Shown here one piece after another: positions 4,130 to 47,594 of a DNA stretch of 53,257 nt (the first letter of the stretch is position 1; the number at the start of each line of letters is the position of its first letter). A program made the translations under genes and the position numbers. The stretch covers positions 1 through 53,257 of the forward strand of contig CAYPGT010000002.1 in NCBI GenBank assembly GCA_964410425.1, given 5' to 3'. The notes below the pieces were generated by a model. It saw only the letters and a program-made list of their open reading frames with translations, had not been told where the DNA came from and did not search any database. Source of the stretch: an uncultured Gammaproteobacteria bacterium. Lineage in GTDB: Bacteria; Cyanobacteriota; Vampirovibrionia; LMEP-6097.

Positions 4130-4417
4130 ATGTATAAAATCAAGCAATCCAAGTCGTTTACTAAATCGCTGAGAAAGCTCGTTAAGTTACATCGTATAAA
4201 TTCTGATCAAATTAACTATATTTTCTTTTTATTAGCGAAAGATCCTTTCGCTGCATCGCTCAAAACTCATAAAGTAAACAGCAAGAACCATGGGATGCAA
4301 TACAGCTCAAGGGTTGACGGAGACCTAAGGTTAATTTGGAATTTTGATAGCGAGAACAATCTTGTGATTATTATTGCTGATATTGGTGGTCACTCCGGTT
4401 TCAACAAGGTATACTAA
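4130..4417 (+). CDS. RelE/YafQ-family type II toxin (mRNA interferase-like)
   Basis: 95 aa. KSFTKSLRKL, HKV....G...SRVDGDLRLIW and the C-terminal IGGHS segment fit the RelE/YafQ pattern. Gene pair has small-antitoxin-then-toxin order. Confidence 0.6.
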   Translation: MYKIKQSKSFTKSLRKLVKLHRINSDQINYIFFLLAKDPFAASLKTHKVNSKNHGMQYSSRVDGDLRLIWNFDSENNLVIIIADIGGHSGFNKVY

Positions 4418-5634
4418 CGCTTATAATAATTCAAAACCTTAGCTAGAGCCTCAATTACATCACTAGCATCTTCTGCGCTCATGCCTTGAGAGATAGGAAT
4501 ACTAAGGATCTCATCAGCGAGCCTAGTGGCATTAGGTAATTTAGATATATCAGTATCCAAAGTTTCCTTATAAAATTTATGCAAGTGTAATGGCTTGTAG
4601 TGCACACCACAACCGATACCTTCAGCCTGAAGAGCATTAAGTATATGGTCTCTATCTACTTTCAACTTATCTAACTCAAGACGAATGATATATAGATGCC
4701 TTGCATGTATTGAGTTAGTCCAGGTTGGATCAAGCTCAGCAGGCGGCTTAGCTGGTAATCCTCTAGACAGTATTTCATTAGTATAGAATGACCAAGTTTG
4801 CTCGCGCACTCGGAGATAATCATAAATCTCATCTAAGTGTGCCAATCCAAGTGCCGCCTGAATATCAGTCATGTTGTACTTGAAGCCAAGTCTTATCGCT
4901 TCGTAATGCTTGAAACCCGCTTCAGAGAAGCGCTTCCAGGCATCCGAGCTTAGACCATGTAATGAACTCTCGTTAATTTGATCAGTAAGTTTATCATCAT
5001 TCCAAACAATCAATCCACCTTCGCCAGTAGTAAGATTCTTAGTAGCATAAAAACTATAACAACCGATATCACCAATAGATCCAGTAACCTGACCCTTATA
5101 TTTACCTTCTATAGAATGTGCAGAGTCCTCTATAATATGGAGTTTATGCTTCTTAGCAAGTGCCAAGATAGCATCCATATCCACAGGATGTCCAGCTAAA
5201 TGGACAGGAATTATAGCCTTGGTTTTAGGAGTGATAGCAGCTTCAACAGCCTTGATATCAAGATTAAAAGTATTATAATCTACATCTACTAGCACTGGTG
5301 TCGCTCTCTCAAATAAAACACTGTTAGCAGTAGCACAAAAGGTGTAGCTAGGCACTATCACCTCATCATCAACACCAATATCTAAGCCCCTTACAGCTAA
5401 GTGCAAAGCTGCGGTACAAGAATTAACAGCTTTAGCATGCTCAGTGCCAATATGCTTCCTGAGATGCTCTTCAAATTCTTTAACCTTAGGTCCAGCTCCT
5501 ATCCAACCAGAATGCAAGGAATCAATAACTCCAGCAATCGCCTTGTCATCTACCTTAGGCTTAGCAAAGACCAAAAATCGCTCTCTTACTTTAGAGCCGC
5601 CTTCGATCGCTGGTAATTTCGTTTTAGTTGACAT
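4414..5634 (-). CDS. DegT/DnrJ/EryC1/StrS-family PLP-dependent sugar aminotransferase
   Basis: 406 aa. Family-typical GAGPKVKEFE, SCTAALHLA, and FYATKNLTTGEGG with the PLP lysine. Confidence 0.9.
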   Translation of the reverse strand: MSTKTKLPAIEGGSKVRERFLVFAKPKVDDKAIAGVIDSLHSGWIGAGPKVKEFEEHLRKHIGTEHAKAVNSCTAALHLAVRGLDIGVDDEVIVPSYTFCATANSVLFERATPVLVDVDYNTFNLDIKAVEAAITPKTKAIIPVHLAGHPVDMDAILALAKKHKLHIIEDSAHSIEGKYKGQVTGSIGDIGCYSFYATKNLTTGEGGLIVWNDDKLTDQINESSLHGLSSDAWKRFSEAGFKHYEAIRLGFKYNMTDIQAALGLAHLDEIYDYLRVREQTWSFYTNEILSRGLPAKPPAELDPTWTNSIHARHLYIIRLELDKLKVDRDHILNALQAEGIGCGVHYKPLHLHKFYKETLDTDISKLPNATRLADEILSIPISQGMSAEDASDVIEALAKVLNYYKR

Positions 5635-5635
5635 C

Positions 5636-6619
5636 TCAGATTAATGCAGGCTTGACCTTGAGCCAATTAGTATTGGTTTTATACCATTCTATAGTCTTAG
5701 CCAGTCCAGCCTCAAAGCTCTCCTCAAGCTTAAAACCGAGAGCCTTAATTTTAGAACCGTCCATTGAATAGCGTAAATCATGACCCTTACGATCTTCTAC
5801 AAACTTAATCAATGATTCATCTTTACCCAGAACCTTAAGGATAGTTCGTGCTAGATCAATATTCTGCACTTCTTCATGACCCGGAATATTATAGATCTCA
5901 CCAATCTGTCCTTTATTACGCACCAAGTCCACAGCACGACAATTATCCTCTACATAGATCCAATCTCTGACGTTGTTTCCGGTACCATAAACTGGAATAG
6001 CTTGATCATTGAGAGCATTACTTATAACTACGGGGATAAATTTCTCAGGGTATTGATACGGTCCAAAATTATTACTAGAACGAGTGATAAGACAAGGCAG
6101 CTTAAAAGTTCTGTTATAAGATCTTACAAGGCAATCAGCAGCAGCCTTAGAAGCAGAATAAGGATTATTAGGCTGTATCGGAGCTGTCTCTTGAGTAGAA
6201 GGCGAATTGAAATCTAAGGATCCATAAACTTCATCAGTACTGATATGCAGGAATAACTCTGGTTCATATTTAAGAGCCACATCAAGCAAGCGCTGAGTAC
6301 CAACTACATTATTAATAGTAAAAGCTTCTGGATTGACGATGGAGTTATCCACGTGCGAATTAGCAGCAAAATTAATCACTTGATCAAATTTATTCTCCAC
6401 AAATAATTTATCCAATAAGTCCTTATCTAAAATAGAACCATGAACGAAACGATATCTATCTGAATCTTTATCCTTGTGATTATTCTTAGATATCTCAAAA
6501 TCTAAATTATCGATATTAACGATCTCAGTATTAGGATAAGACTTATAAATAAGATTGAGAAAATTGGTTCCGATGAAACCATTACAACCCGTTAAAAGTA
6601 TTTTTTTCGCCTGGCGCAC
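5636..6619 (-). CDS. rfbB: dTDP-glucose 4,6-dehydratase
   Basis: 327 aa. Rossmann motif ILLTGCNGFIGTNF, catalytic YSASKAAAD, HISTDEVYG. Starts 1 nt after the DegT start region, so same operon. Confidence 0.88.
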   Translation of the reverse strand: MRQAKKILLTGCNGFIGTNFLNLIYKSYPNTEIVNIDNLDFEISKNNHKDKDSDRYRFVHGSILDKDLLDKLFVENKFDQVINFAANSHVDNSIVNPEAFTINNVVGTQRLLDVALKYEPELFLHISTDEVYGSLDFNSPSTQETAPIQPNNPYSASKAAADCLVRSYNRTFKLPCLITRSSNNFGPYQYPEKFIPVVISNALNDQAIPVYGTGNNVRDWIYVEDNCRAVDLVRNKGQIGEIYNIPGHEEVQNIDLARTILKVLGKDESLIKFVEDRKGHDLRYSMDGSKIKALGFKLEESFEAGLAKTIEWYKTNTNWLKVKPALI

Positions 6620-6729: not shown

Positions 6730-8649
6730 TTAATACGTTGGCTTATATTCGTCTATCCACAACTGTAAGCTTAATAAAGCCCAAAGTAATTTACGGTTAT
6801 TAGTTTTATGATCTAGATGTTCATCTATAAGTTTTTTAATGCCCTGATAATCAAAAATACCTTGAGACTCAAGTCTATCCTTAGACAATAAATCCAACAT
6901 TGGCTCTTTAAGGTCTTCTCTCAGCCATTGGGTAATAGGAATACCAAAGCCTTTCTTCGGTCTATATATAACTTCATCAGGAATATATTTCTCAGCAACT
7001 TTTTTAAGTATATATTTAGTCTGTAAAGTTTTCAGTTTAAACCTATCAGGCAACATTGAAACATATTCAACTAAGCGATGATCTAGAAACGGCGAGCGTA
7101 TCTCTAGAGAGTTCTGCATACTAGCACGATCAGACTTAACCAAAATATCATCCATTAAATAAAGTTTTTGACTTAGATAAAGCAAGCGATCTGTTTCATT
7201 ATGAATATTAGTTCTAGATAGATATCTATTGAGATCAGAATAAGTGAGCTGTCCAAGAATTTTATTCTGATAATTTTCACTCAATATGCCCTTCTTCTCT
7301 TGGTCTAGGAAGCCTCCCATCCATCTAAAGAAGCGGATCTCACTAGCTACACCAGCCCCTCTAAAGAACTGCTTAAGCTTAAAATCTAAAGCAATATTTT
7401 TATTAGAGATCGGTATCAATGAGCCTTGAGCTTTACTAAACAGAGTAGTTAACCTTGAACGCAGCTCATAAGGGATGATGTTATAAATTTGCACCAGTTT
7501 GTTAGCGCTATAGGTAGGATAGCCAGCAAACATTTCATCTGCACCATCACCGCCCATAACTGTTTTAACGTTCTTAGCTGTCATCTGCGATAAGAAATAA
7601 GTAGGCACTATAGAAGCATCTGCCATAGGCTCATCCATAATACGCCCCAGCTGACCAAACACTGAAAGCATATCCTTAGAACTAACGGTCTGTGAATAAT
7701 GCTCTAAGTCATACTTAGAAACTATCTTCTTGATATAACTCGATTCATCATAACTAGCCTCATCGAAATAAATAGAGAAGCTCTTAATTCTTTCGCTACC
7801 AGTTTTCACCTTCGAAGCAATCGCAGTCACCAAGCTAGAATCAATACCACCACTGAGTAGCACTCCCACTGGTACATCAGCTTGCATGCGTATTTTAATA
7901 GAATCACTAAGTAAAGAATCTATCTGCTCTATCGCTTCCTTCTCGGTGTGAACAGTACCTTCTTGAAAACCATAACTAGGATGCTGCCAGTAAAAGCTCT
8001 TCTTCATTTCATGCTCAGTGATTACAGCTATCTCACCAGCTTCTAATTTCCACACTTGATCAAGAATCGTGTATGGAGTCGGCACATACTCATAAGTAAG
8101 ATATTTATTAAGACCTTCACTGGATAACTCACGTGAACAATGGGGATGCTTCACTAAGGCCTTCATCTCAGAAGCAAAGAAGACATCATTACCCTTGCGC
8201 TGATAAAAGAGCGGCTTCTCGCCCATGCGATCTCTAGCAAGCACTAATCTCTCTTCATCGATGTCCCAGAGAGCAAAAGCAAACATACCATTAAGTTGCT
8301 TCACGAAATCCAAGCCAAACTTCTTGTATAGACTGAGAATCACTTCTGTATCAGAATTAGTCTTAAAAGGAAAACCATTCTTCTCTAATGAAGCTCTAAG
8401 TTCTTTATAGTTATAGATTTCACCATTAAAAACTATTACTTGTTTTCTATCAAAAGAAAACATAGGCTGATGCCCAGTCTCCAAACCAACAATACTAAGT
8501 CTTCTAAAACCAAGATTAATCTTGTCCTGTATCTCAATGCCACTATCATCTGGTCCTCGATGCACAATGCTCTGGCACATGGCAGTAAGGACTGATGACT
8601 TATCAAAGCCCAGATCCTTAAAACTTGTAAACCCGACTATTCCGCACAT
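6730..8649 (-). CDS. asparagine synthase (glutamine-hydrolysing)-family amidotransferase
   Basis: 639 aa starting MCGIVGF (Ntn Cys). SGGIDSS PP-loop motif present. Sits in a glycan locus, so it may amidate a sugar rather than make Asn. Confidence 0.9.
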   Translation of the reverse strand: MCGIVGFTSFKDLGFDKSSVLTAMCQSIVHRGPDDSGIEIQDKINLGFRRLSIVGLETGHQPMFSFDRKQVIVFNGEIYNYKELRASLEKNGFPFKTNSDTEVILSLYKKFGLDFVKQLNGMFAFALWDIDEERLVLARDRMGEKPLFYQRKGNDVFFASEMKALVKHPHCSRELSSEGLNKYLTYEYVPTPYTILDQVWKLEAGEIAVITEHEMKKSFYWQHPSYGFQEGTVHTEKEAIEQIDSLLSDSIKIRMQADVPVGVLLSGGIDSSLVTAIASKVKTGSERIKSFSIYFDEASYDESSYIKKIVSKYDLEHYSQTVSSKDMLSVFGQLGRIMDEPMADASIVPTYFLSQMTAKNVKTVMGGDGADEMFAGYPTYSANKLVQIYNIIPYELRSRLTTLFSKAQGSLIPISNKNIALDFKLKQFFRGAGVASEIRFFRWMGGFLDQEKKGILSENYQNKILGQLTYSDLNRYLSRTNIHNETDRLLYLSQKLYLMDDILVKSDRASMQNSLEIRSPFLDHRLVEYVSMLPDRFKLKTLQTKYILKKVAEKYIPDEVIYRPKKGFGIPITQWLREDLKEPMLDLLSKDRLESQGIFDYQGIKKLIDEHLDHKTNNRKLLWALLSLQLWIDEYKPTY

Positions 8650-9512
8650 TATTTATTCTTCCTAAACAGGAATTCATTATTCAGCAAACCATTATTACTA
8701 GTAAGATTTTCTAATTGCAAACCATATTGCTTACAAAAGTTAAAAATCTCAGCAGAACTCGCATATTCATATGGATAGCCACCCAACCAATCGACGATAT
8801 CAGTCTTCCAATCCATACCTCTAAAACCAATATGTTCTTTTATTTTTTTAACTGGATTGGTGAAAGTTATCAGATAGAAAAATATCAGTATAGACATAGC
8901 GATATAGTCAATAATCGCTTGGATAAACCTAGGCATTTGTGAGTAGATTTTTTTCTCTAAATACCACATGTAAGAATTACCAAACCTAAAATCAGGATAG
9001 ATGTTAAAACCATCAGAGTTATTGTAGATAGCAATGTACATCTGTCCCTGATCCTTGACTAACTTAGTAGTGTTTTCAATAGCTCGCCACATATTGCCTG
9101 TGTGGTGCAATACACCCCAAGAATAAACAAAATCAAAACTACCTAAACTTTCTACAAACCTATTATCGAGGATTGAACCGTGTATGATTTGCCAGTTATC
9201 AGGCTCTCCCATTAGGTGATAGAGCTTCTTGCAACAAGCAACAGAATTCTCATCAATATCAATACTCAGAACTGATTTAGCTCCTAACTTATAAGCAGCC
9301 AGAGAGAAGAGACCACTACCACAGCCGATATCGACAAAGGTCTTGCCCTTCAAAGCATCTTTGCCACAAAAATCTTCAAATGACGCAATAGCCTTATTTA
9401 AGACTTTTTCGTCAAAGCAGTTTTCTAAATATTGAGACCAGTTTTCACCGAAATGAAAGAAATTCTTCGGCTTTTCTGGGTTTGTTGTTTTTTGACTAAG
9501 ATCTAAATTCAT
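8649..9512 (-). CDS. class I SAM-dependent methyltransferase
   Basis: 287 aa with VDIGCGSGLFSLAA (motif I). 1-nt overlap with the AsnB-like gene. Confidence 0.8.
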   Translation of the reverse strand: MNLDLSQKTTNPEKPKNFFHFGENWSQYLENCFDEKVLNKAIASFEDFCGKDALKGKTFVDIGCGSGLFSLAAYKLGAKSVLSIDIDENSVACCKKLYHLMGEPDNWQIIHGSILDNRFVESLGSFDFVYSWGVLHHTGNMWRAIENTTKLVKDQGQMYIAIYNNSDGFNIYPDFRFGNSYMWYLEKKIYSQMPRFIQAIIDYIAMSILIFFYLITFTNPVKKIKEHIGFRGMDWKTDIVDWLGGYPYEYASSAEIFNFCKQYGLQLENLTSNNGLLNNEFLFRKNK

Positions 9513-9679: not shown

Positions 9680-11425
9680 ATGACTAAGCAACAAACCTAT
9701 AATATCCTTATATCTCTAATTATTGCCTTCTTTATCAGTTGGGAGGTCATCAGTCCAATTCTTACTAATGAGTTGGTAGTACAGGATGATTTTCGGCAAA
9801 GTTTGTTTTGGCTATGGCATCTTTGGGATCCGGAACTCTTCACTAATGATTTCTTTACACCAATATACTCAACCCTAGTACAAAAAGTTCCACTTTTATA
9901 TCTGCTGTTTAAGATCGCTCCCTTCTTCTGTAGCAGTATAATTTTCTATTCGAAATTTCTAGTACTTATTATTGCAGTTGCAACAGGGTTGATGGCATTT
10001 CTATTCTTTCAAGCTTTACTTGCTAACTACAATAGTTTTAATGAGAAGCTGGGTGAACTTAAGTTTCTAGGATTAAATTTTAAGTTAATTGATATCTGGG
10101 CTCTGTGTTTCTCTACGATATTAATCACTACAGCATGGTGCACGGATCATTTATCAGCAGCACATTCTAGATCTTTCGTATGGCTTGGGATTCTAGCTTA
10201 TATGTATTTTAAGCTTATTCATAAACCCATAGCTGCAGCTTCAGTTTGTTTTATTAGCATCTTCCTTAGTCCCCATGCGTTTTTGATTTGTTTTGCAATG
10301 GAATTTTTCTATGGCATTATCAAATACCGCAGTGCGTTTATAAACTTCAAGCAGAAGGAATTTTTACTTTGGTTCATTAATGGCGCAGTCACCGCATTTA
10401 CCTACTTAGTTCTGTTTAAGGATATTAAAACTCAAGGAGTGGGGACTGCGTTTACCGTAGCAGAGATGAAAGCCTTGCCAGAATTCAATCCTGGAGGCAG
10501 ACATCCGATATTTGGCTCCTCTATTTGGGATGGTAGCTGGTGGACAAACGAGCATTGGGGACTTGGTATTGGTTATCTTCCTATTAGTTCTATTATTAAA
10601 TATGCTTTCATAGCTGGGATAATTTATCTAATCTCTATATTAATTAGCAAGAAAAACAAGAAGAATATTTTTCACAATTCATTCTCTGCAATCTTTGCTT
10701 CGGTACCAGCGACCTTACTTTATGCAGCTATCTCTTTATACATAGCATCACAATTACTATTTCCGATTCTATACTTACCCAGCAGATACCTTGCTGTACC
10801 TTCCCTGCTGCTTTCAGTAATAAGCTTGACCTTAATGCTTGGTATCTGGCTCAGGGACTTAGCTCAAGAACTACCTAAGTCACTCTCTAACAGAGTTTTT
10901 GCCCTAGCATTAGTGATCACTACTGGAGCTTACTGGAATATTGCTCACAAGTTTTATCACACTCGCTATGTTTCTATCAGTCCAGAAGTTAATGCTGCAC
11001 TATCACAAACACCAAAGAACAGCCTTATCGCGGGACATCCAATATTACCAGATATCAACGTAGCCTCGATCACATCTAAACGGTCAGTCTTTGTTGATTA
11101 CGAACGCAGCATGGCTTACACACATGAATCACTCGCAGAGATCAGAAGGCGTAATGAAGTGGCACTAAGAATGACCTATGCTAAATCCAAGGAGGAGTTT
11201 TTGAAACTGGCTGATGATAACGGCATAACTCATTTCTTAGCTTTATATAACTTGTACCAAAAACCTTATATTGATAATCCAAGCTATATGGAGCCATATA
11301 ATGCCCTATTACGTGAACTAGTCAAACTCAATCCTGGAGAATCTTTCTTCTTAGAAAGATTTATGGCAGAGAAACATATAGGCTATATGGTTGTGGATAT
11401 CAACGATATACGCAATAGGTCTTAA
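9680..11425 (+). CDS. large polytopic membrane protein, GT-C-like glycosyltransferase candidate
   Basis: 581 aa with many hydrophobic segments, then a ~150-aa hydrophilic C-terminal region. Acidic pair (VVQDDF) lies just after the first hydrophobic segment, as in GT-C enzymes. Confidence 0.5.
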   Translation: MTKQQTYNILISLIIAFFISWEVISPILTNELVVQDDFRQSLFWLWHLWDPELFTNDFFTPIYSTLVQKVPLLYLLFKIAPFFCSSIIFYSKFLVLIIAVATGLMAFLFFQALLANYNSFNEKLGELKFLGLNFKLIDIWALCFSTILITTAWCTDHLSAAHSRSFVWLGILAYMYFKLIHKPIAAASVCFISIFLSPHAFLICFAMEFFYGIIKYRSAFINFKQKEFLLWFINGAVTAFTYLVLFKDIKTQGVGTAFTVAEMKALPEFNPGGRHPIFGSSIWDGSWWTNEHWGLGIGYLPISSIIKYAFIAGIIYLISILISKKNKKNIFHNSFSAIFASVPATLLYAAISLYIASQLLFPILYLPSRYLAVPSLLLSVISLTLMLGIWLRDLAQELPKSLSNRVFALALVITTGAYWNIAHKFYHTRYVSISPEVNAALSQTPKNSLIAGHPILPDINVASITSKRSVFVDYERSMAYTHESLAEIRRRNEVALRMTYAKSKEEFLKLADDNGITHFLALYNLYQKPYIDNPSYMEPYNALLRELVKLNPGESFFLERFMAEKHIGYMVVDINDIRNRS

Positions 11426-11487: not shown

Positions 11488-11850
11488 ATGCCTGCAGATA
11501 AAGACACCTTAGTAACAGCTAAAACTCAAAATACAGAATCAGCAGATTTTCAATTCCTCGCAACTTTAGATGAATTAGAACCTCACGGACAATTAAGTCG
11601 CTGGGTGAATGATCATGATATTTTACTTTATAAACATGAAGGTGAACTTAAAGCTATCAGTAATATTTGTCCACACTTTGGTGGACCAGTCGGCTATCGC
11701 AAGGCGAAGGATGGAATATTTACTTGTCTTTGGCATAATTGGCAATTCTCCTGTGCAGATGGTTCTTGTAAGACCAATCCAGGATTGAGTTTAAGGCAGT
11801 ATCAATTAAGAGTTGAGGGTAATAAAGTTTACGTAAACTTATTAGGGTAA
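11488..11850 (+). CDS. Rieske [2Fe-2S] domain protein
   Basis: 120 aa with CPHFGGPV ... CLWHNWQF (C-x-H ... C-x2-H Rieske ligands). Confidence 0.85.
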   Translation: MPADKDTLVTAKTQNTESADFQFLATLDELEPHGQLSRWVNDHDILLYKHEGELKAISNICPHFGGPVGYRKAKDGIFTCLWHNWQFSCADGSCKTNPGLSLRQYQLRVEGNKVYVNLLG

Positions 11851-11854
11851 AGTC

Positions 11855-12544
11855 ATGGTGAAAAATAAAAGTAACAAGGTTAAATTAACTCTGGAGCTAG
11901 AACTAGAGCAAGACTGCCCCAAGGAAGTAATAATGTGGAACTATTATGACCATGAACACTTACTGGGCACTCACCAAAAGCTTTACAGAGAAGCTCGTAT
12001 CTTAGCAGAAAGAGATGATTGGGCGTTGGTTTATAGAAGAGCTAAAATTCCTGTAGTACCTTTCGAGAATGAGGGAATTGGTTTTCAGTATATGCCTGAG
12101 CCTCATATTATGAGGACAGTTCATAGAGATATCTGGGGCATGTTAGACATGGAAGTTCACTTCTTTGATCTTCCTAACAACAGATCAAGAATGAAGATTT
12201 ATTACAATATGCATGTTCCTAGATGGATGGGATTTCTTCAACCAGCATTCAGGATAGTGTTTAGTTCATGGCTCAAAAACGCATGGGCAGAGGATGTACC
12301 AATGAGAAACAGACGCTGGAAAGTTCATACCTTGGGCTTCAAGGATTTTCATGGTATTGATTGGATTAACAAGAAACAAACTAAGCCTGTAGACCTCAAT
12401 CCTGGTCCTTATATTTTCGAACCACCAGTACCTTCTCTACCTGTTATTAAAAATGAAGGGATGTTCAGACCTGATGTAAGCGAAATAGTGCTACCCAATA
12501 AAGAATATAATGTTGACTATACAGCAGGAGTAGCAAATCATTGA
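11855..12544 (+). CDS. hypothetical protein; candidate non-heme iron catalytic partner of the Rieske protein
   Basis: 229 aa starting 4 nt after the Rieske ORF stop, in a different frame. YDHEHLLGTH (nt 11948-11974) fits the D-x2-H-x4-H mononuclear iron motif of Rieske oxygenase catalytic domains. Confidence 0.4.
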   Translation: MVKNKSNKVKLTLELELEQDCPKEVIMWNYYDHEHLLGTHQKLYREARILAERDDWALVYRRAKIPVVPFENEGIGFQYMPEPHIMRTVHRDIWGMLDMEVHFFDLPNNRSRMKIYYNMHVPRWMGFLQPAFRIVFSSWLKNAWAEDVPMRNRRWKVHTLGFKDFHGIDWINKKQTKPVDLNPGPYIFEPPVPSLPVIKNEGMFRPDVSEIVLPNKEYNVDYTAGVANH

Positions 12545-13437
12545 GTTGTATTGTATGTAATTCAGATAGTGAGTTACCTTTATTTACCGGACTAAAAGAC
12601 TGGGAGTACGAAACCTGTGGTCCAATTGATTTTTACAAATGTACCTGCTGTGGTCTGATATCACAAAAGCCCTTACCTAAGCTAGATCTAGTCCCAAAGT
12701 TTTATCCTGCTAACTATCGCAACTACTTAGCTATAGGCTCGGGCATATTCTCACAGTTAAAAAAAATAAAATTCCGCAAGCAAGCACAGGACCTTAGTAA
12801 GTTTTTCACTAAGAGTTCTAAAATTCTTGAAATCGGCTATGGTAACGGCGAGCTACTAGTAGCATTAAAAGATTTAGGATATGATAATTTATATGGTTGC
12901 GATTTCAGCAGTGCTGCCTCTGAAAAGCTCTCAAACAAAGGCATTCAAGTTCAAGTAGCTAACGTTGAAAAAGAAATCCCATTTAACAAAGAGTTCGATA
13001 TCATTCTTCTCAACAATGTTATAGAACATTTCTTAGATCCAGCAGCCGTAATGAAGAACTGCTACTCCAAGCTTAAACCTGGAGGACTGTTACTCTTATT
13101 CACACCTAACTCTAAAGCAATTGAACTTTCTATATTTGGGAAATATTGGGCTGGGCTCCATGTCCCAAGACATATACATTTATTCAATCAACAAAATCTA
13201 CAGCTGATGTCTAAGAAAAGTGGCTTCTCTTCTATAAAATTTCATGCAGATCTAGATCCTGCTCAGTGGGCGATATCCATACAGAACTATCTTCAAGACA
13301 CTAAACTATTTCACACTAAATTAGAGAACGGCATGTCATTCTATATGGTTCCCTTAAGCTTGATGTTTATTCCAGTCGCAATCCTACAAAGACTTACAGG
13401 AAACAGTACAGGGATTCTGGCAGTCTTAAAAAAATAA
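12541..13437 (+). CDS. class I SAM-dependent methyltransferase with N-terminal Cys4 zinc-ribbon
   Basis: 298 aa. CIVC ... CTCC pairs at the N-terminus, ILEIGYGNGELL motif I, NNVIEHFLDP. TTG start as given by the ORF track; overlaps the preceding ORF by 4 nt. Confidence 0.78.
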   Translation: MSCIVCNSDSELPLFTGLKDWEYETCGPIDFYKCTCCGLISQKPLPKLDLVPKFYPANYRNYLAIGSGIFSQLKKIKFRKQAQDLSKFFTKSSKILEIGYGNGELLVALKDLGYDNLYGCDFSSAASEKLSNKGIQVQVANVEKEIPFNKEFDIILLNNVIEHFLDPAAVMKNCYSKLKPGGLLLLFTPNSKAIELSIFGKYWAGLHVPRHIHLFNQQNLQLMSKKSGFSSIKFHADLDPAQWAISIQNYLQDTKLFHTKLENGMSFYMVPLSLMFIPVAILQRLTGNSTGILAVLKK

Positions 13438-13452
13438 GTTATAATCACAGTA

Positions 13453-15708
13453 ATGTTGATTACTTTAATCCTAATTAAATTCGCTATTTTACTTTTAGTT
13501 TTAAGCTTAATCGGCAAAGCTCTCTATCAAAAACTTACTAGTCAAACTGAAAATATATTAGCCAATAGCTACAAGCTTACGCGCTATGCAAGTTACCTAA
13601 TAATAGGTCTAGGGTTTGCCTTAGTCACATCACATCTACTGTCATTTATCACTCAAAGCTACAGAAGCAGTTTGAATATTCTTCTGCCTGTCTTCTTAGT
13701 TGTAGCAGGGATTCCCTGTGTTAATTTCTTCAAAAATAAAGACCGTAATTGGCTTGAGTTAATTAAATTTAGCAAGGTTGAATTATTTCTTTTAGCGCTA
13801 CTGGGTTATCTAGGCTATATCTACATTCAAGTAGATGCTTTTACTTTCGGTTCTTGGGATAAGATTCATCATTGCTATGTTGCTTCAATCATGGAGAATA
13901 ATTTCTATCCTCCAGCAGAACCTACTGACATAAGCCAAAAGATGGACTATTACCATTATGGTGTTGACCTTATAGCTGGAGCATTTAGTCATTATTTAGG
14001 CATAGAACTCTGGTACGCTTACGCATTACAACTAGCCTTGTTTGTTTGCATATTAATAGTATTCTTATTCTCAACCATAAGCCTTTTCATTCCCAGTGCA
14101 GCACTTGCAGCATTCTTAACCATATTCACTTTCTTTTTCTCAACACTGAATAATCTAGAGTTCTTATTGCGCTATAGCACTATATTTGCTGGTTATCCTC
14201 TCGACTTAGCAAAATTCTTCGATGTCTTCAAAGCTATGTCTGCTCTATCAGCCAAGAATTTAAGCGTGCGCATGCTTTTCTACTCTCCGAATATGGGGTT
14301 TGCGATGTCATTTACTAGCTTATTCTTCTTAGTAAAATTCCTCAAACTAGATGAACTAAAGAACTATATTAAGTATCTAATTATCGTCTTCTGCTCATTC
14401 TTACTATATTTCGGTGAACCTTCAATGTGGTATCCGTTTTTTGGGGCATTAGCTATATACTCAACAATTAAATTTCTCTATAACTTCAAACCTTTAGGCA
14501 TTGAAGCATCTATAAAAGCAAGTAAACTAAGTCTCTGCTATATCGCCTCGATGTTCTTAGGTAAACTCATCTGCATGAACAGGCATATCTCAGACTTCAA
14601 CGGTATTAATCTATTTAGCTTTCATCCATCTCTTAATTTAAACATTCCTATTAGCTGGGGCTCTATATATCAGCGATTATTTATCGATGAAATTCTTAAA
14701 CACTATAAGATCATACATCACCATTTCAATTATTTTGAAGCTCCTTTGTTCTCAGAGATTGGTTTTCGAGAGATTGGCATATTTGTTCTTCTAGGTTTCA
14801 TAGCATTATTATTAAATTTATTTATCAAGAAACAGAGTTTTCCAGTAGCTTTTATTTTCCTAGTAGCATTCTTGGGATTTCTCGTTCCTTTCTTTTTTGA
14901 GTACTCAATCAGACCAGAAGAAGACCTAAGATTCATAATCTTCAGCAAACCATTTTTCACTTTAGCTGCTACTTTAGGATTCTTCATGCTCAGCAGGAAT
15001 TTCAACAACTTCTTCTCAAGTTGGGAATTAATTATCATTGCCTTAATGATCTTAAACATAGCTCCAACTTTTTACACAGTGGTTACAGGTGAAGCTCCTC
15101 ATCAGGGTCACCTAGTCGTCACTCCTGAACAAAGCAAATTCGTTAAAGAATTTCGCAAGTATCATAAGTCTGGCGAAACCTGCTTAGATGACTCTATGTA
15201 TATAGGCTGGGCAGGTAACTCTACCTTGGCAGGCTGCTATGGGTTGGGTTATAAGCTCTATAGAGAAAACAAGAATACTCGAGAGACGGCTTTAGCCACC
15301 ATGAATCCTTTCTTACTTAAAGAGCTTAACGTTGATTATATTGTCATCAGCGATTACGACAAACTCTCTGCAGAAGCGAAACAGCGACTTGGCGATCCAA
15401 AGCTCTTCAGTGAAATGAAGATAGATGATAGCCTTAATTGGCATATCTATAAATTCAATAAGAACTTTAATACAGCTGATAATATAAAACTCGCTGATGA
15501 ATATATCTGGGCTGTTACCATGGTAGATATTGATGGAGGAACTCTTATGGTTGAAGATACAGAGCACCATTATTATATGTCCAAAGACCGTAAGCTTCTT
15601 CTAGATGAACTCGCGAAGATCAAGGATATAATTAAGGATCAAAGTGTAGAGTTTGTTGTTTGGGGTTCAGTGGAAGCTTTTAAGACAGCTGATTTCGCTA
15701 AGAAGTGA
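13453..15708 (+). CDS. large polytopic membrane protein, GT-C-like candidate; paralogue of 43521-45722
   Basis: 751 aa, many hydrophobic segments plus a soluble C-terminal ~200 aa. Shares YHYG(V/T)DLI and NP(F/L)LLKEL(N/H)V.Y ... AKQRL(G/D)(D/N)PKLF with the 733-aa protein. Confidence 0.5.
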   Translation: MLITLILIKFAILLLVLSLIGKALYQKLTSQTENILANSYKLTRYASYLIIGLGFALVTSHLLSFITQSYRSSLNILLPVFLVVAGIPCVNFFKNKDRNWLELIKFSKVELFLLALLGYLGYIYIQVDAFTFGSWDKIHHCYVASIMENNFYPPAEPTDISQKMDYYHYGVDLIAGAFSHYLGIELWYAYALQLALFVCILIVFLFSTISLFIPSAALAAFLTIFTFFFSTLNNLEFLLRYSTIFAGYPLDLAKFFDVFKAMSALSAKNLSVRMLFYSPNMGFAMSFTSLFFLVKFLKLDELKNYIKYLIIVFCSFLLYFGEPSMWYPFFGALAIYSTIKFLYNFKPLGIEASIKASKLSLCYIASMFLGKLICMNRHISDFNGINLFSFHPSLNLNIPISWGSIYQRLFIDEILKHYKIIHHHFNYFEAPLFSEIGFREIGIFVLLGFIALLLNLFIKKQSFPVAFIFLVAFLGFLVPFFFEYSIRPEEDLRFIIFSKPFFTLAATLGFFMLSRNFNNFFSSWELIIIALMILNIAPTFYTVVTGEAPHQGHLVVTPEQSKFVKEFRKYHKSGETCLDDSMYIGWAGNSTLAGCYGLGYKLYRENKNTRETALATMNPFLLKELNVDYIVISDYDKLSAEAKQRLGDPKLFSEMKIDDSLNWHIYKFNKNFNTADNIKLADEYIWAVTMVDIDGGTLMVEDTEHHYYMSKDRKLLLDELAKIKDIIKDQSVEFVVWGSVEAFKTADFAKK

Positions 15709-17515: not shown

Positions 17516-17859
17516 TTTCTTTTATAGTCGTCAACCAGACGCACTACATCATCCATTTCTGGTGTAGAGGCTTCAAGATAGACAGCATCTCCCAACTCAG
17601 CTTCCATTCTATGCACTACGCCAGGGCTAATAGTCACAGATTCACCAGGATGAAACTGTTGCTTAGCGAGAGTTTCAACACTATTACCAATATAAATATT
17701 TAGGATTCCTTCAAGCACATAAATAGTTTCCTTCTTATGATTATGATATTGAATACTGCATCTATGCCCCTTATGCATAGTAAGCTTTTTCATCATGTAC
17801 TTGTCATTGATTTCTACTACTTCTTCTTTGCCCCAGGGCTTGTCTATTGTTTGTAACAT
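17512..17859 (-). CDS. cupin domain protein, type II phosphomannose-isomerase-like
   Basis: 115 aa. KPWGKEEVV ... KKLTMHKGHRCSIQYHNHKKETIYVLEG matches the PMI-type cupin pattern. 4-nt overlap with the downstream gene. Confidence 0.75.
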   Translation of the reverse strand: MLQTIDKPWGKEEVVEINDKYMMKKLTMHKGHRCSIQYHNHKKETIYVLEGILNIYIGNSVETLAKQQFHPGESVTISPGVVHRMEAELGDAVYLEASTPEMDDVVRLVDDYKRN

Positions 17860-17918
17860 AATTATATTATTTATCCTATATTTCTATTGAGAATCCTTCC
17901 AAACATCAAAATAGAAAT

Positions 17919-20279: not shown

Positions 20280-20307
20280 TTAATATAGTAAATTATTAGC
20301 CGTTCGA

Positions 20308-20870: not shown

Positions 20871-20901
20871 ATATATGAATTGTATTATATAATTTCTATT
20901 T

Positions 20902-36700: not shown

Positions 36701-39700
36701 CAATAAATTTAGCGTTAAACTCTAGAAGTGATATTCTATTGAAAAAACAAGAAGCAACTGACTTAAGCAAAACACATACTTTAGTCATACCTTTTTCAGT
36801 TGTGACTAAGTCTGTTACTGATCTTGATGTTCGCCTTAAAGGTATCTACGAAACAGATACGACTCCATTACAAGATCCAATAGACGAAACAACGGAAACA
36901 AATATAACACCGCTGGAAAATACGATCGTTGTGAAATTTATGGACTTCCCGTCTTTTGATAATCGTAATCTCCTGAATCAAAGGGTCAAAATTAAAGGTT
37001 CTGATGGCAAAGAGAACATGTACTTGTATTCTAAAATCAGCAATATTGTTGGCAAGAAATTTGATCCACTTGAACTTGAGTTGCAACTTTTTGACGAAAC
37101 TAGTTCTACCATTGGTGATCCAATTATAATTAATGGCTCAGTACTAAAGGGAAATAATGTGGTATCGCCAATTAAATCAAAAGGATACAATAGTTCAATA
37201 GAAAATATTTCCATTACCAAGAAAATTAATACTAACCTCACACAGTTTTTAGGTGAAAGTGACTTTAAAACTAATATGCTAGATGCAGAATTTGTTGGAA
37301 TTAAACTAAGAAGAGATCGAGCATATCTAGCAACTTTAGTGGATCAAGGAGACATAGATGAATACTATGAAGTTGATGAGAATGATGCTTTTAGGTACCA
37401 GAAGTTAGAAATAGATCATGGATATAGAAATCACTGCTCAATAAGAGTCAATGATCGACCAGTGCTTAGTCCTTATACTATAGCTGATGAGTCAGATCTA
37501 CAATATATAACCATTAATTTTTCATCTGCTAGTAAAAATACTGCGAAGATTTGGGTTTTAGATAGTGAAAGAAATGATTTCAAATTTTCTAATGATGTGA
37601 TATATACTTCAACAAATTTTGATACTCCCTTTATTATTGTTAACAAAGAGAACCATAAAATTAATTACAATGGTGGTATTTTCAATTTCAATGGTTTTAG
37701 AGCACCAGAAGATAAGTCACGTTATTCAATTAATTTTGTAGTGGCAAAAGGTAATGCTGATCCGAATGTTGTCGCGCAAGGTGGATTCGATTCTAATACG
37801 GGAGTGGTTTGTTCGATTGAAGTTGTTAAAGATATACCAAATGCAGAGATTCTTATTCAAGGATTAGAGAAAGGTGTTTTGAATAGTATACCTCTAGGAA
37901 GATCCTATCCAGTAATCGTGAGTACTAATCCTACTCGATCAATTGATGGTGTTAGAATGGGCATTGCTTATCAAGACCCTAAAAATCCAACTAATACAAT
38001 CACGAAATTTATTTCTTATAAGAGGGATGGTGCGTTTATCCTTGTAGACTTGGATGAAGTTGTTCCTCTGCATCAAATAGGTATAAAATACACTCTTATT
38101 GCTGAATTGAGATATAGTGATCCAACGGTCGCTAATGGTTATAGCGTTAAAGACGAAACTAGAGATTTCATATTAGTTGAAGACACCGAACCAATCATAA
38201 CCTTCGGTACGGATGGGATTAATGATCTTGGTGATCCTGGTTCTGGCAATAATGACGGTGAACCGAATGTGATCTATGCTCCAGCTGAGCAAGATTATGT
38301 ATTTGATAGAACCATTACATTTACAGGTATTAAGAATGAAGATGTCAATAAGATTAGCTTCAAGCTCATAGATAAAGCTGCTAATCAAGAAGCATTAAAC
38401 CCAGTAACAGTACGTTCTACAAGTCCGACTACGAATGCCGATGAATATACCTATAATATCTCTACTATTATTCCTTTTCAACGAATTGAAGATATTAAAG
38501 AATATATCTTAGAAGCGTACTTTGATAATCAGAGACTGAGTCAGACTGCAGAGTTCTTTATTATTGATGATCCAGTGTTGAAAGTTGATATCCCTGATTT
38601 TCTGGAATTTGATGAAAATGGGACTGATGCTATTCTGCAGTTTACAGCAAATATTGATAATGGTTTTGAAAGAGATATGCATGTTGAATATACTACGTAT
38701 ATTGATGGGGATCCTGAGAAAGGATTGGAGAACTCCGAACCATATACTACAAAGCCTATTCAAGGTAATGAATTGACTGTATCTCAAGAGTTTTCTAGGT
38801 CTATAGATATAAATGTGTCGTCTTTATCTGTAATTCGTAAAGGATTGCTTATTGCAGATGATTTAATCCTATTAGAGGCGATATCAGGTGCAATTGGGAC
38901 TACTGTGATTGCTAATAGAAAGAAAATTGAAAAAACCTTTTCTACTCTCGCTGCTTCTGCAATGCTCGCTACCGAGAACTTAGTAAAAAATACTAGAATA
39001 TCGTTTGGTACCAAACAGCCATTATTTGATTTCAAAATCATTGGCTCTGATGGTAATGCTGTGGAATTTATGGATGGAAGTAGTTCTACTTATAAATTAC
39101 GTGTTACTAGTGCCTTAAATTTTGGAGAAGTATATCTTTGTCAAGAAGTTGATCAAACTGATCAATGTAATGAAATCGAAACGGGTGAATATCAATTAGA
39201 TACTTTTGAAGAAAAAGGTCCCTTTACTTTTACATTACCTGATGGTAAACCTAAAAATCTAAGTACTAGTTATGTAAAAGATTTAGAAATAAAAGCCCCT
39301 CCTGTAATTCCTGGAACGAATATTGGTATATCTACAATTAGAGTAAGGTATTATGACAGGGATCGTGATTCAACAGTATTTCTCTCTGCAATGACAATGT
39401 TATTGTCAAAAACTTCTGATAATTGGTGTATTACTAAAGAAGTTGCTAGATTAAAGGGATTGGCTAATCCTAATCTAGCACTACCTTTTATTGCTCGATT
39501 TATTGACCATGCAACTAGAGTTAGAGATTCGATTAGTGATGAAGGTATAGTTGTCAACAATCATCCATATACCTTCTTTAAAAATGATTTGCGTGGAATC
39601 AAATATGATCTTTGGAGATTAGTTCCGAAGACCCAAGGTAAATATTCTATCTCAAATCCTGATGCAGCCTTAGGGTATTGTATGTCATTAGCTGATCATA

Positions 39701-45722: not shown

Positions 45723-46554
45723 TATAATCCAATCTATCACCAATAATCTAAATCTGAAAGATGGTATCTTTTTCCCTAACAATAGTTATGATGATTATAA
45801 GATTTCCTATCCAGAAGAAAGCCATGATTACTATTTAGATATAGAAGAAAATTCTTTTTGGTTTCAGCATAGAAACAAATGTATCTATTCACTAATCAGT
45901 CACTTTAGTCCCAATGAAATCTTTTTTGATATTGGAGGTGGCAATGGTTTCACCTCATTATATTTAACACAGAACCATATTAAGTCCGTTGTAATAGAGC
46001 CAGGTCTCAGTGGAGCTATAAATGCTAAGAAAAGAGGTCTCACCACCATTTGTTCGAGAATTGAAGATCTTGGATTTAACCAAGAGAGTATCAAGTCTGT
46101 TGGGCTATTTGATGTTATTGAACATCTTGCAGATGAAAGACCCTTCCTCAATACTCTAAAAAACTATCTGGCAAATGATGCTTTCCTCTACGTAACAGTT
46201 CCAGCTTATGATTTTTTGTGGTCTTACGAAGATCAATCTTCTGGACATTTTAGAAGATATACGGTCAAAAGCTTAACTCACATTTTAGAAGAGCTAGGAT
46301 TTTCAATCAAATATGCAAGTTACTATTTCTCTCCATTAGTGCTACCAATATTTTTATTGAGAACGCTGCCTCACAAATTAAATAAAAACAGAAAGCCCAA
46401 TATCAATACAAATAAATCGGAACACTCCAATACGAAAATCTCTTCGAAAATAATATCACCTCTACTAAATTTAGAATTAAAGCTAATTGATAAATTAGAA
46501 ACCTTACCTTTAGGTGCAAGCATTCTAGCCGTAGCACAATACAAGGGAAACTGA
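45715..46554 (+). CDS. class I SAM-dependent methyltransferase
   Basis: 279 aa. FFDIGGGNGFTS (motif I), LFDVIEHLADE. 8-nt overlap with the preceding membrane protein gene. Confidence 0.78.
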   Translation: MNNIIQSITNNLNLKDGIFFPNNSYDDYKISYPEESHDYYLDIEENSFWFQHRNKCIYSLISHFSPNEIFFDIGGGNGFTSLYLTQNHIKSVVIEPGLSGAINAKKRGLTTICSRIEDLGFNQESIKSVGLFDVIEHLADERPFLNTLKNYLANDAFLYVTVPAYDFLWSYEDQSSGHFRRYTVKSLTHILEELGFSIKYASYYFSPLVLPIFLLRTLPHKLNKNRKPNINTNKSEHSNTKISSKIISPLLNLELKLIDKLETLPLGASILAVAQYKGN

Positions 46555-46559
46555 GCTAA

Positions 46560-47594
46560 CTATGCCCCGCACAGCTTATTAATAATGAACTGCTTGCCGC
46601 ATATATCCAAATTCTTATGAATTACTGATGATATCAGAGTCGAATCTCTAACTGAGGTACTCTCCATAACGATACTGTCCTGCACTTCACTATTCTCAAT
46701 AATACAGTTATCAGCGATTGCAGTGAAAGGTCCAAGCGTAGAGTTATAAATCCGTACATTCTTGCCAATAAAGATCGGCCCCATTAAGTTAGAACCTTCT
46801 ATAACTGTTTTCTCTTTAACAGCAATGTTACCGTGTAAGTATGAGTCTCTGATAGTTGAATCCACGTTATCAAATTTATTGGATTCTATCAGTAGTGTTT
46901 TATTAGCATCTAGAATACCATCTCGAGTTCCAGAATCAAACCAGTAAGAATTCAAAATATGCGTGGTAACACTTTCACCACTTTCTACTTGCGCAGAGAT
47001 CGCATCGGTGATCTCCAATTCCCCTCTAGGACTAGGTTGCACTTGGTCAATAAACTTATAAATATTCTTACTGAATAAATAGACACCAACGATCGCATGT
47101 CTAGAAACAAAAGTCTTAGGTTTCTCAACAAGCTTCTCAGCTTTACCCTCTTCACTAAACTTCACCACTCCAAAGTCATAAGGTCTATCAACTTCTTTAA
47201 TAAGGATTAAAGAATCTGCCTTGGTATCGTAAAACTTCTTCACCATTTTCACCAAGGGCTCATCAAAAATATTATCACCAAGAATCACCGTGAAATCATC
47301 ATCACCAGTGAACTCTCGATTAATACCCACAGCATGAGCTAGACCACGCGGCGCATCTTGATAGAGAAAACTAATATTCACTCCAAAATCTTCCTGGCGC
47401 ACTTTTTCTTCAATAAGCTTACCTGTCTCAGGATTAAGAACTATTTGAATATCATAGATATCTGCTTTACGTAAGTTTTCAATACAATGAAACAGTATAG
47501 GACGTCCCATCACTGGGACTAATTGCTTGGGGTAATTATCAGTTATAGGAGCTAACCTTGAACCCTTACCTCCAGATAATATTATGCCTTTCAT
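46560..47594 (-). CDS. sugar-1-phosphate nucleotidyltransferase, long form (paralogue of 42391-43425)
   Basis: 344 aa. MKGIILSGGKGSRLAPITDNYPKQLVPV. Colinear with the other copy over the full length, clearly diverged at the nucleotide level. Confidence 0.85.
   Translation of the reverse strand: MKGIILSGGKGSRLAPITDNYPKQLVPVMGRPILFHCIENLRKADIYDIQIVLNPETGKLIEEKVRQEDFGVNISFLYQDAPRGLAHAVGINREFTGDDDFTVILGDNIFDEPLVKMVKKFYDTKADSLILIKEVDRPYDFGVVKFSEEGKAEKLVEKPKTFVSRHAIVGVYLFSKNIYKFIDQVQPSPRGELEITDAISAQVESGESVTTHILNSYWFDSGTRDGILDANKTLLIESNKFDNVDSTIRDSYLHGNIAVKEKTVIEGSNLMGPIFIGKNVRIYNSTLGPFTAIADNCIIENSEVQDSIVMESTSVRDSTLISSVIHKNLDICGKQFIINKLCGA

Follow-up and report, generated by a model that had tools for sequence, protein, structure and literature searches.

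A strain-variable gene island combining three families of GT-C-like membrane proteins with a GtrB-type glycosyltransferase in an uncultured Melainabacteria-like bacterium: a probable surface-glycosylation locus

The DNA analysed here, a stretch of 53,257 nucleotides from contig CAYPGT010000002.1 (assembly GCA_964410425.1) that will be called the window, carries between 4.4 and 47.6 kb an island of genes for five large polytopic membrane proteins, enzymes of nucleotide-sugar metabolism, a glycosyltransferase of the GtrB/ArnC type and a giant secreted protein. An initial interpretation made from the letters alone (the sequence-only reading) had described an Arn-like pathway in which a formamido-dideoxyhexose is loaded on a lipid carrier and transferred by GT-C-like enzymes. 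Every open reading frame (ORF) it relied on was reproduced by our ORF map. The window makes up nearly all of a metagenome contig of 55,278 bp (ENA ERZ3430528 NODE_321). Our analysis favours, with a probability of roughly 0.65, the view that the island is a strain-variable surface-glycosylation locus using lipid-phosphate-linked monosaccharide donors, with no Wzx/Wzy or ABC route. Coordinates below are those of the window and are followed by the strand; L-numbers (L081, L085, L166 and so on) are labels of related loci compared with the window.

The five polytopic proteins fall into three groups: family A, with a single member; family B, with copies B1 and B2; and family C, with copies C1 and C2. 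No sequence relationship between the groups was detected, and hhalign profile-profile comparisons were not significant. The family A protein (9680..11425, +; 581 amino acids [aa]) gave no Pfam or NCBIfam match, whether searched by itself or with its 57 aligned homologues, and a sequence search of the PDB returned nothing useful. A word-indexed search identified about 84 homologues. Two adjacent aspartates that follow transmembrane helix 1 (TM1), D36 and D37, are present in every one of 58 sequences; R274, R369 and E475 are likewise invariant. When the AlphaFold model (pLDDT 94.3) was compared with solved structures using Foldseek, all 18 PDB matches at E<=1e-3 were GT-C glycosyltransferases (STT3, PglB, AglB, DPY19, AftA), with E values down to 2e-6 and TM-scores up to 0.46. 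Distant family A homologues (21-27% identity) that retain a QDDFRQ motif are widespread in filamentous cyanobacteria, including Microcoleus, Lyngbya, Calothrix and Rivularia (L096-L164). The two cyanobacterial loci examined place the gene beside those of other multi-TM proteins, namely PMT_2 GT-Cs in Calothrix (L151) and a DUF6798 protein in Lyngbya (L121), the latter locus also holding a methyltransferase gene.

The family B proteins, B1 (13453..15708, +; 751 aa) and B2 (43521..45722, +; 733 aa), are 27% identical over 704 aa (E 3e-56) and are likewise without Pfam or NCBIfam match. The B2 gene is divergent from the RmlA1-GtrB gene pair described below. In the word-indexed search B1 returned only itself, and C1 returned three proteins. 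Searched exhaustively with HMMER, 1.84 billion representatives yielded 88 family B relatives, and a scan of 185,579 species genomes with a narrower family B alignment located nine loci. The family seems confined to Caenarcanales-like Melainabacteria. With the B1 model (pLDDT 91.4), 13 of 13 significant Foldseek matches were GT-C enzymes (DPY19, AftA, STT3, PglB, AglB), beyond which the scores fell sharply to noise; TMt values reached 0.50, with AftA. The conserved residues of the family comprise D136, acidic in 44 of 47 sequences, and the nearly invariant E490, R493 and F494. D136 is placed after helix 4, not helix 1, and the loop that holds it is followed by two short helices, an arrangement known from canonical GT-C modules.

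Family C can be assigned by profile to the PMT/ArnT superfamily. Its two copies, C1 (23039..24628, +) and C2 (24625..26205, +), are 44% identical and match PF02366 with 34.8 and 34.9 bits, respectively, against a gathering threshold of 22.7; we take this Pfam family to correspond to CAZy families GT39/GT83. Neither copy gave an NCBIfam ArnT match, and the PDB search yielded a weak match to Pmt1 (E 0.017). Both carry a FIDDS motif after TM1, in which the second aspartate (D36) alone is invariant in all four family C sequences aligned.

All five polytopic proteins are thus GT-C-like, as predicted from the structural models for A and B1, from homology to B1 for B2 and from the PMT score for C1 and C2. 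The sequence-only reading had anticipated this assignment, although it treated as one set what proved to be three unrelated families. It had also noted acidic pairs after the first hydrophobic segment, an observation that holds for family A and for the FIDDS motif of C1 and C2 but not for family B. Application of the positive-inside rule to the sequences suggests that the conserved acidic residues lie in periplasmic loops. The possibility that the membrane proteins would model as transporters found no echo in the Foldseek results, as transporters appeared among the matches of A and B1 only at E>0.05 and probability <0.25. Finally, these genes are linked to genes for glycosyltransferases of family GT2 resembling GtrB or dolichol-P-mannose (DPM) synthase (see below), and their products may use polyprenyl-phosphate-linked sugar donors.

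The soluble enzymes encoded in the island were named correctly in the sequence-only reading, which had listed nucleotidyltransferases, a dehydratase, a DegT aminotransferase, an N-formyltransferase and an ArnC/GtrB-type GT2, all confirmed by profile and PDB matches. Two long-form glucose-1-phosphate thymidylyltransferases, RmlA1 (42391..43425, -) and RmlA2 at the right-hand end of the island (46560..47594, -), are 61% identical and score 339 and 329.5 bits with TIGR01208 (cut-off 320). The dTDP-glucose 4,6-dehydratase RmlB (5636..6619, -) scores 409 bits with TIGR01181 (cut-off 365). RmlA and RmlB hence satisfy the equivalog models that apply to these steps of a dTDP-4-formamido-4,6-dideoxyhexose pathway. 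Next to RmlB, a DegT-family sugar aminotransferase (4414..5634, -; PF01041, E 4e-116) has as its best PDB matches ArnB and perosamine synthetase, both of which are C4 aminotransferases, and by this resemblance it probably acts at C4. It scores 347 bits with the NCBIfam ArnB model NF008658 (cut-off 631), and the PseC model also remains below its cut-off.

The N-formyltransferase (40913..41482, +; PF00551) is a short protein of the PseJ type. Residues 2-186 of its 189 aa align to residues 2-184 of the 192-aa PseJ structure (PDB 6ci2, E 8e-47), VioF and other dTDP-sugar formyltransferases match far more weakly, and the ArnA model NF005998 gives 66 bits (cut-off 777). As Pfam matched profile positions 75-171 only, a truncated enzyme was considered; the end-to-end alignment with PseJ ruled this out. 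The GtrB/ArnC-type polyprenyl-phosphate glycosyltransferase (41398..42387, -; GT2, PF00535, E 8e-25) is encoded 4 bp downstream of RmlA1. It presents the features of GtrB-type enzymes: a GT-A domain with a DXD motif (DGSPD and DCD were identified), two hydrophobic C-terminal TM helices at about residues 216-243 and 256-280, and homology to solved GtrB and ArnC structures. The best PDB matches are the GtrB-type sll0501 (5ekp; 5e-45, residues 2-304) and ArnC (5e-30). In NCBIfam the top model is PgfS (161 bits), followed by ArnC NF007986 (124 bits, cut-off 529), both below their cut-offs. The formyltransferase and GtrB-like genes are convergent and overlap at their 3' ends by 85 bp (41398-41482), an arrangement that is kept in a sister contig (L166 13852-13936).

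None of the window ORFs of at least 100 aa matched Pfam or NCBIfam models for Wzx, Wzy, Wzz, Wzm/Wzt, ABC transporters, Bac_transf or Glycos_transf_4, and no Pfam or NCBIfam match to the ArnD deformylase or to ArnE/F was obtained with any window ORF. The sequence-only reading had likewise recognised no Wzx, Wzy, Wzz, ABC, initiating transferase or small flippase gene in the window, and profile searches and an inspection of the intergenic gaps agree with it. Nor do the immediate flanks of the window contain conventional export genes: only housekeeping genes were found there.

These flanks define a chromosomal slot. In relatives the same position, between the genes for phosphoadenosine phosphosulfate (PAPS) reductase and citrate synthase, is occupied by glycan genes of varying content. 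The left flank comprises PAPS reductase, DUF309, DCC1 and flavin reductase genes and the right flank citrate synthase, permease and hydrolase genes, all of them housekeeping. A 537-aa ORF located just beyond the left end of the window (L081 11646-13259) has no Pfam match, and scans of the window for tRNA genes and Rfam families were both empty. The closest homologues and neighbours belong to metagenome-assembled genomes (MAGs) titled Candidatus Melainabacteria or Candidatus Caenarcanales; judged by these sequences, the host is an uncultured Melainabacteria (Caenarcanales-like) bacterium, a relative of cyanobacteria. Several MAGs from SRP150892 and SRP302895 that carry the closest homologues (L086, L087, L171, L174-L176) bear the title "uncultured Gammaproteobacteria". 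Since citrate synthase and island genes group these MAGs with Melainabacteria/Caenarcanales MAGs, such titles are probably wrong. An archaeal Agl-type system, which low GC content, the PMT hits and the long RmlA had first suggested, was ruled out, the neighbours and homologues being those of bacterial Melainabacteria MAGs.

The minimal content of the island could be delimited by comparison with a sister contig assembled from the same sample (ERZ3430528 NODE_220; loci L166 and L171). The sister locus is compact, about 20 kb, and its proteins are 73-95% identical to those of the window (C1 75%, B2 79%). From left to right it comprises genes for DegT, RmlB, DUF4143, AsnB, a methyltransferase, family A, a Rieske protein, a 229-aa protein and a methyltransferase; then family C, an internally deleted C2, a toxin-antitoxin pair, the PseJ-like formyltransferase, the GtrB-like GT2, RmlA and B2; and lastly a methyltransferase, RmlA2 remnants, DUF4143 and citrate synthase. 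Because the sister locus keeps these genes, the core of the system is one sugar pathway, one GtrB-type loader and one GT-C per family. Relative to the sister, the window has in addition B1 and a second sugar cassette, a further GT2 of 271 aa (GT2-271), an intact C2, a LamG-domain protein, the giant protein, a 242-aa protein, RmlA2 and HipAB. The C2 gene of the sister (L166 11586-12623) retains the codons for residues ~1-175 and 352-515, and its RmlA2 (L166 19033-19259) persists as fragments. In this genome, from which the giant/LamG block is missing too, accessory genes have decayed.

Pairing of GT-C and loader genes extends to other loci. Family B is divergent from a loader-type GT2 of the GtrB type in the window (B2) and in the sister, and of the 271-aa type in L174-L176, where the GT2-271 homologues are 62-76% identical to that of the window. 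In L177 a 65% identical GT2-271 homologue lies just upstream of family B. The NDP-sugar cassettes beside the GT2-271 homologue differ by genome, that of L174 consisting of an NTP-transferase, a dehydroquinate (DHQ)-synthase-like protein and an SDR. In L085, genes for an RmlA-like protein, RmlB, DegT and family A are clustered, with family A directly downstream of DegT. Side by side with family A, three loci carry a gene for an LPG_synthase_TM protein (MprF-flippase-like, PF03706): L089 (9023-9958), L093 (6488-7438) and the Calothrix locus L151 (5413-6399), in which two further PMT_2 proteins also adjoin the distant family A homologue. The LPG_synthase_TM proteins are a candidate flippase class for these systems; the window contains no such gene. 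In L175, genes for MBOAT O-acyltransferases (DltB/AlgI-like; 11926-13338 and 17658-19034) follow the family B GT-C gene, a hint that the same product is also acylated outside the cytoplasm.

Between C2 and the formyltransferase gene, the window encodes a 4147-aa secreted protein (27715..40158, +) with six stretches of PKD repeats and, as its only hydrophobic segment, a signal-like one at the N-terminus. About 85% of this giant protein, the part beyond the ~6 PKD stretches, is without Pfam match, and no internal repeats were detected at BLAST level. Its stop codon overlaps by 4 bp the start of the gene for the 242-aa protein (hyp242; 40155..40883, +), for which no family match was found. Divergent from the giant gene is the gene for a secreted PKD/DUF2341/LamG protein (26198..27574, -) with Laminin_G_3 and PKD domains and a signal-like N-terminus. 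Collinear orthologues of the giant protein occur in the same island of three other genomes (L176, 43% identity over 2,241 residues; L175, 37% over 2,383; L174, 35% over 1,254 aligned residues), with a GT-C gene near each. In L174 and L175 the giant orthologue is followed by a hyp242 homologue, a LamG homologue lies beside the giant gene in L176, and LamG-protein homologues adjoin the family B gene in L176 and L179. In both the window and L176 the divergent LamG/giant pair comes directly after a GT-C gene. The identity of the giant orthologues (35-43%) compares with 88-96% for flanking housekeeping proteins, suggesting that the giant protein evolves fast.

The giant gene is absent from L166 and L171, and several related family A islands lack a giant homologue within 10 kb. 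Since the sister locus does without it, the giant protein does not belong to the conserved core and is not needed in cis. On the strength of the sister locus it had been considered an irrelevant insertion; this idea was dropped when the collinear orthologues were found. Because these recur beside GT-C genes in three other genomes, it may still serve as an acceptor. The giant protein, which the sequence-only reading had proposed as a possible acceptor, thus appears as a recurrent accessory of the island and a candidate acceptor: the recurrent linkage and the hint of co-degeneration in the sister are compatible with its being the acceptor of the accessory GT-Cs, although they fall far from proof.

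A second sugar cassette occupies 15926-21044. It encodes a 529-aa fusion of a nucleotidyltransferase (N-terminal, PF00483) and an APH-type kinase (C-terminal, PF01636; 15926..17515, -), with an 83% identical homologue in L086; a cupin of the mannose-6-phosphate-isomerase C-terminal type (17512..17859, -; PF01050, PF07883); a 276-aa protein without family match (18055..18885, -); a GatZ/KbaZ-like protein (18882..20129, -; PF08013, 32 bits, gathering threshold 26.7); and a KdsC-like HAD sugar-phosphate phosphatase (20373..21044, -; TIGR01670, E 2e-18, residues 62-207), whose true start is probably downstream of the TTG codon that opens this ORF. No NCBIfam equivalog was matched by the cassette, which may direct the synthesis of an undescribed NDP-sugar. 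The adjacent GT2-271 (20902..21717, +; PF00535) has no TM segment and is a candidate second polyprenyl-phosphate-sugar synthase, its best PDB match being DPM synthase, followed by ArnC. Together with its own cassette it probably supplies a second lipid-linked donor, to judge from these similarities.

Of the remaining island genes, that for an AsnB-type glutamine amidotransferase (6730..8649, -; PF00733, GATase_7, TIGR01536 above cut-off) is the most constant neighbour of family A, being adjacent to it in most related loci; its own neighbourhood encodes neither a uronic-acid pathway nor any other evident carboxyl substrate. Three S-adenosylmethionine (SAM)-dependent methyltransferases are encoded, the first (8649..9512, -; Methyltransf_11/23/25) kept in the sister locus. 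The second (12541..13437, +; Methyltransf_23, E 7e-27) forms a triad (11488-13437) with a small Rieske [2Fe-2S] protein (11488..11850, +; PF00355) and a 229-aa protein (11855..12544, +). The latter has no family match, always accompanies the Rieske gene and is 85-92% identical in L166 and L086. The triad directly follows family A, is kept together in L086, L087 and L166, and may constitute a split Rieske oxygenase that tailors a sugar. The third methyltransferase gene (45715..46554, +; Methyltransf_23) overlaps the end of B2 and follows B2 in the sister locus too. Selfish or mobile elements of three kinds stand at the junctions of the glycan modules (47606-49164, 3806-4417 and 21712-22944): a HipA/HipB toxin-antitoxin pair, a YafQ-like toxin with a 100-aa partner and a DUF4143/AAA_14 ATPase. 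Corresponding junctions of the sister locus are taken up by a ParE pair and two DUF4143 genes. These elements may mark recombination points of the island.

A pathway can be proposed on the basis of the gene identities, GT-C folds, conserved periplasmic acidic residues, linkage and absence of conventional export genes observed here. In the cytoplasm, as family membership and gene order would have it, RmlA and RmlB would produce dTDP-4-keto-6-deoxyglucose from dTDP-glucose; the ArnB/perosamine-synthetase-like DegT enzyme would aminate the keto sugar, probably at C4; the PseJ-type enzyme would N-formylate the amine; and the methyltransferases would perhaps tailor the sugar further. The GtrB-type GT2, presumably co-transcribed with RmlA1, would load the sugar on undecaprenyl phosphate, while GT2-271, with the kinase/nucleotidyltransferase/GatZ/HAD cassette, probably makes a second lipid-linked sugar. 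A flippase encoded outside the window would turn the lipid-linked sugar across the membrane, and the five GT-Cs of three families would pass the sugars on to acceptors at the outer side of that membrane, the cytoplasmic one. A, B2 and C1, the core set kept in the sister without the giant gene, would modify an envelope glycoconjugate that is conserved. B1, C2 and GT2-271, an accessory set linked to the LamG and giant PKD proteins, would most plausibly glycosylate both. In this scheme we infer the identity of the sugar, the lipid carrier, the flippase and every acceptor. The formamido-dideoxyhexose of the sequence-only reading survives in this form: the order dTDP-sugar, GtrB-like loader, GT-C fits the linkage, with sugar and carrier surmised. 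Precedents are found in three-component GtrB/flippase/GT-C systems (PMC11127046) and in protein glycosylation by GtrB or PgfS plus GT-C enzymes, with adhesins encoded in the same cluster (PMC12041528).

Several observations weigh against interpreting the island as a glycosylation locus of this kind. The structural similarity of the A and B models to solved GT-Cs is moderate (TM 0.35-0.50). No flippase is encoded in the window, nor does any intergenic gap hold a small multi-TM ORF of the GtrA, ArnE/F or GtcA type; outside this contig, the genome may carry conventional glycan genes and the pathway of the true acceptor. The DegT/RmlB pair is 35 kb away from the formyltransferase/GtrB pair, and because of this distance their coupling is an assumption. 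Where the aminotransferase places the amine and what the PseJ-like enzyme formylates are predicted from family resemblance, and PseJ itself works on a UDP-linked intermediate of the pseudaminic-acid pathway, not on a dTDP sugar. The Ser+Thr content of the giant protein is ordinary (12-20% per 200 aa), with no tracts resembling intrinsically disordered regions (IDRs) and none of the Ser/Thr-rich tracts seen in known protein substrates of GtrB/GT-C systems. More generally, the protein functions are predicted from sequence, models and gene order.

Four other explanations of the locus were weighed. Tentatively, the island could be a dedicated protein glycosylation system of the Pgf kind, which chiefly O-glycosylates the giant PKD and LamG proteins in the periplasm or at the surface (precedent in PMC12041528). 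Consistent with it are the recurrence of giant orthologues with hyp242 and/or LamG homologues beside GT-C genes (L174-L176, and the LamG homologue by family B in L179), the position of the LamG/giant pair directly after a GT-C gene in the window and L176, and the coincidence, in the sister without the giant gene, of an internally deleted C2 with an RmlA2 remnant. C1 and C2 moreover match the protein-O-mannosyltransferase Pfam family, and PgfS is the top NCBIfam match of the GtrB-like GT2. Against it, PF02366 also covers the lipid A-modifying ArnT, and co-location could reflect a shared island of surface variability. In the sister, which has no giant or LamG gene, A, B2, C1, the GtrB-like GT2 and the complete sugar pathway are all intact, several family A islands have no giant homologue within 10 kb, and the composition of the giant protein offers neither enrichment in Ser and Thr nor IDR-like tracts.

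It is also possible, though we would not call it probable, that single formamido-deoxyhexose or other residues are added in Arn/Gtr-like fashion to lipid A, core or a pre-made O-antigen of the lipopolysaccharide (LPS), the backbone genes (Wzx/Wzy or ABC, WaaL) being elsewhere. The architecture fits the classic three-component logic (PMC11127046), and the GtrB/ArnC-like GT2 and ArnB-like aminotransferase suit such a scheme, as does the strain-level variation of cassettes, which is typical of serotype-converting modifications. Leloir glycosyltransferases are almost lacking in the island, the GtrB-like GT2 being the sole one in the compact sister, and therefore the island cannot build a repeat unit by itself. 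Against LPS decoration stands the number of GT-Cs, since three to five for one or two donors far exceeds known Gtr or Arn systems; the features of Arn membership fail, and no LPS genes are visible on the contig.

An assembly in the style of arabinan, in which the three GT-C families would prime, extend and branch a homo- or oligo-polymer of (methylated) formamido-deoxyhexose directly from undecaprenyl-phosphate monosaccharides, seems unlikely. Mycobacterial arabinan is built by several GT-Cs from one lipid donor, and such a mode of synthesis would account for the absence of Wzx/Wzy or ABC machinery. It would also agree with the compact sister, which has one loader, one sugar pathway, three GT-C families and no other glycosyltransferase, and with the presence of AftA among the closest structural neighbours. 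Protein-modifying STT3, PglB and DPY19 are nevertheless equally good neighbours, processivity is without support, and no function for exporting or attaching a polymer across the outer membrane is visible. Last, that the polytopic proteins are transporters, polymerases or ligases clustered here by coincidence is highly improbable: the absence of Pfam/NCBIfam matches for A and B and the non-significant A/B/C comparisons would allow it, but every significant Foldseek match is a GT-C, with transporters confined to the noise, the periplasmic aspartates are conserved, the pairing with genes for polyprenyl-P-sugar-synthase-like GT2s is conserved, and C1 and C2 exceed the PMT threshold.

The interpretation of the island as a surface-glycosylation locus fed by lipid-phosphate-linked monosaccharides has implications beyond this genome. 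GT-C enzymes carry out most extramembrane glycosylation, including N-glycosylation, O-mannosylation, lipid A modification and arabinan synthesis, and new GT-C families are still being founded (e.g. GT136 in 2024). Families A and B are two candidate new GT-C families, with confident models, clear candidate catalytic residues and informative linkage. The compact islands with three GT-Cs and the expanded ones with five GT-Cs and a giant protein amount to a natural experiment in which loaders, GT-Cs and acceptors can be matched. A lipid-linked 4-formamido-4,6-dideoxyhexose would, to our knowledge, be a new type of donor for GT-C chemistry and glycoengineering, provided that the donor is confirmed. 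A search for literature on Melainabacteria envelope glycans found nothing relevant, and the island provides a first view of the envelope glycobiology of this group. Bolder, and in our estimate doubtful, is the proposal that a major surface structure (a polymer or the 4,147-aa PKD protein) is built or heavily decorated wholly outside the cytoplasmic membrane by three GT-C families, from undecaprenyl-phosphate monosaccharides including a formamido-dideoxyhexose, without Wzx/Wzy, ABC or synthase. If true, such extracytoplasmic assembly would parallel mycobacterial arabinan or eukaryote-like protein O-glycosylation in a new phylum.

Among known systems, the assembly of mycobacterial arabinogalactan and lipoarabinomannan (AftA-D, EmbA-C, PpgS/Rv3779) uses many GT-Cs and polyprenyl-monophosphate sugars outside the membrane. 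The island resembles it in that AftA is among the best structural matches and that GT2-271 weakly resembles PpgS and DPM synthase; it differs in having neither Emb/Aft sequence homology nor a decaprenyl-phosphoribose pathway. The formyltransferase shares with PseJ of Anoxybacillus kamchatkensis (PDB 6ci2) a full-length alignment and the short single-domain format. Because its genomic context is RmlA, RmlB and DegT, indicative of a dTDP-6-deoxyhexose, rather than a pseudaminic-acid cluster, its substrate probably differs from that of PseJ. With the Arn pathway the island has in common the succession keto-sugar, transamination, N-formylation, loading on undecaprenyl phosphate by a GT2 and transfer by a periplasmic GT-C; ArnB is the best PDB match of the aminotransferase, and C1 and C2 match the Pfam family that includes ArnT. 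The label "Arn-like" given by the sequence-only reading had nonetheless to be abandoned. The formyltransferase is a 189-aa PseJ-type protein, not the bifunctional ArnA (formyltransferase plus UDP-GlcA decarboxylase); UDP-GlcA decarboxylase, the deformylase ArnD and ArnE/F are missing from the island; the precursor would be dTDP-glucose, processed by RmlA and RmlB; and the ArnB and ArnC models score about a quarter to a half of their equivalog cut-offs on the island proteins.

The Pgf system of Streptococcus mutans and streptococcal GtrB/PgtC2 (PMC12041528) offer a similar combination of a GtrB/PgfS-like loader, several GT-Cs and large secreted adhesin-like proteins in the cluster. Unlike Pgf, the island has GT-Cs that are not of the YfhO type (no YfhO Pfam match), its candidate substrate is without Ser/Thr-rich disordered tracts, its host is a diderm relative of cyanobacteria, and the predicted sugar is neither N-acetylhexosamine (HexNAc) nor Glc. 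The closest parallel lies in the three-component systems, which include GtrA/GtrB/GtrC of Shigella and Salmonella phages, CsbB/GtcA/YfhO and the GT136 pentofuranose systems (PMC11127046, PMC7389260). The island shares with them a cytoplasm-facing GtrB-homologous GT2 with C-terminal TM helices (PDB 5ekp, 5e-45), GT-Cs with periplasmic acidic motifs and a location in a variable surface-glycan locus. It departs from them in the absence of GtrA, MATE or another flippase from the window, in having five GT-Cs of three families rather than one, with two families lacking a Pfam/NCBIfam model, and in a donor that is probably a dTDP-derived amino-formyl sugar, with a second, TM-less loader. The best-supported classification is therefore that of a GtrB-plus-GT-C system of the three-component type and not a member of the Arn pathway. 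It stands apart from the known three-component systems by the number of its GT-Cs, three to five drawn from three families of which two lack a profile model, by a probable dTDP-formamido donor and by having two kinds of loader.

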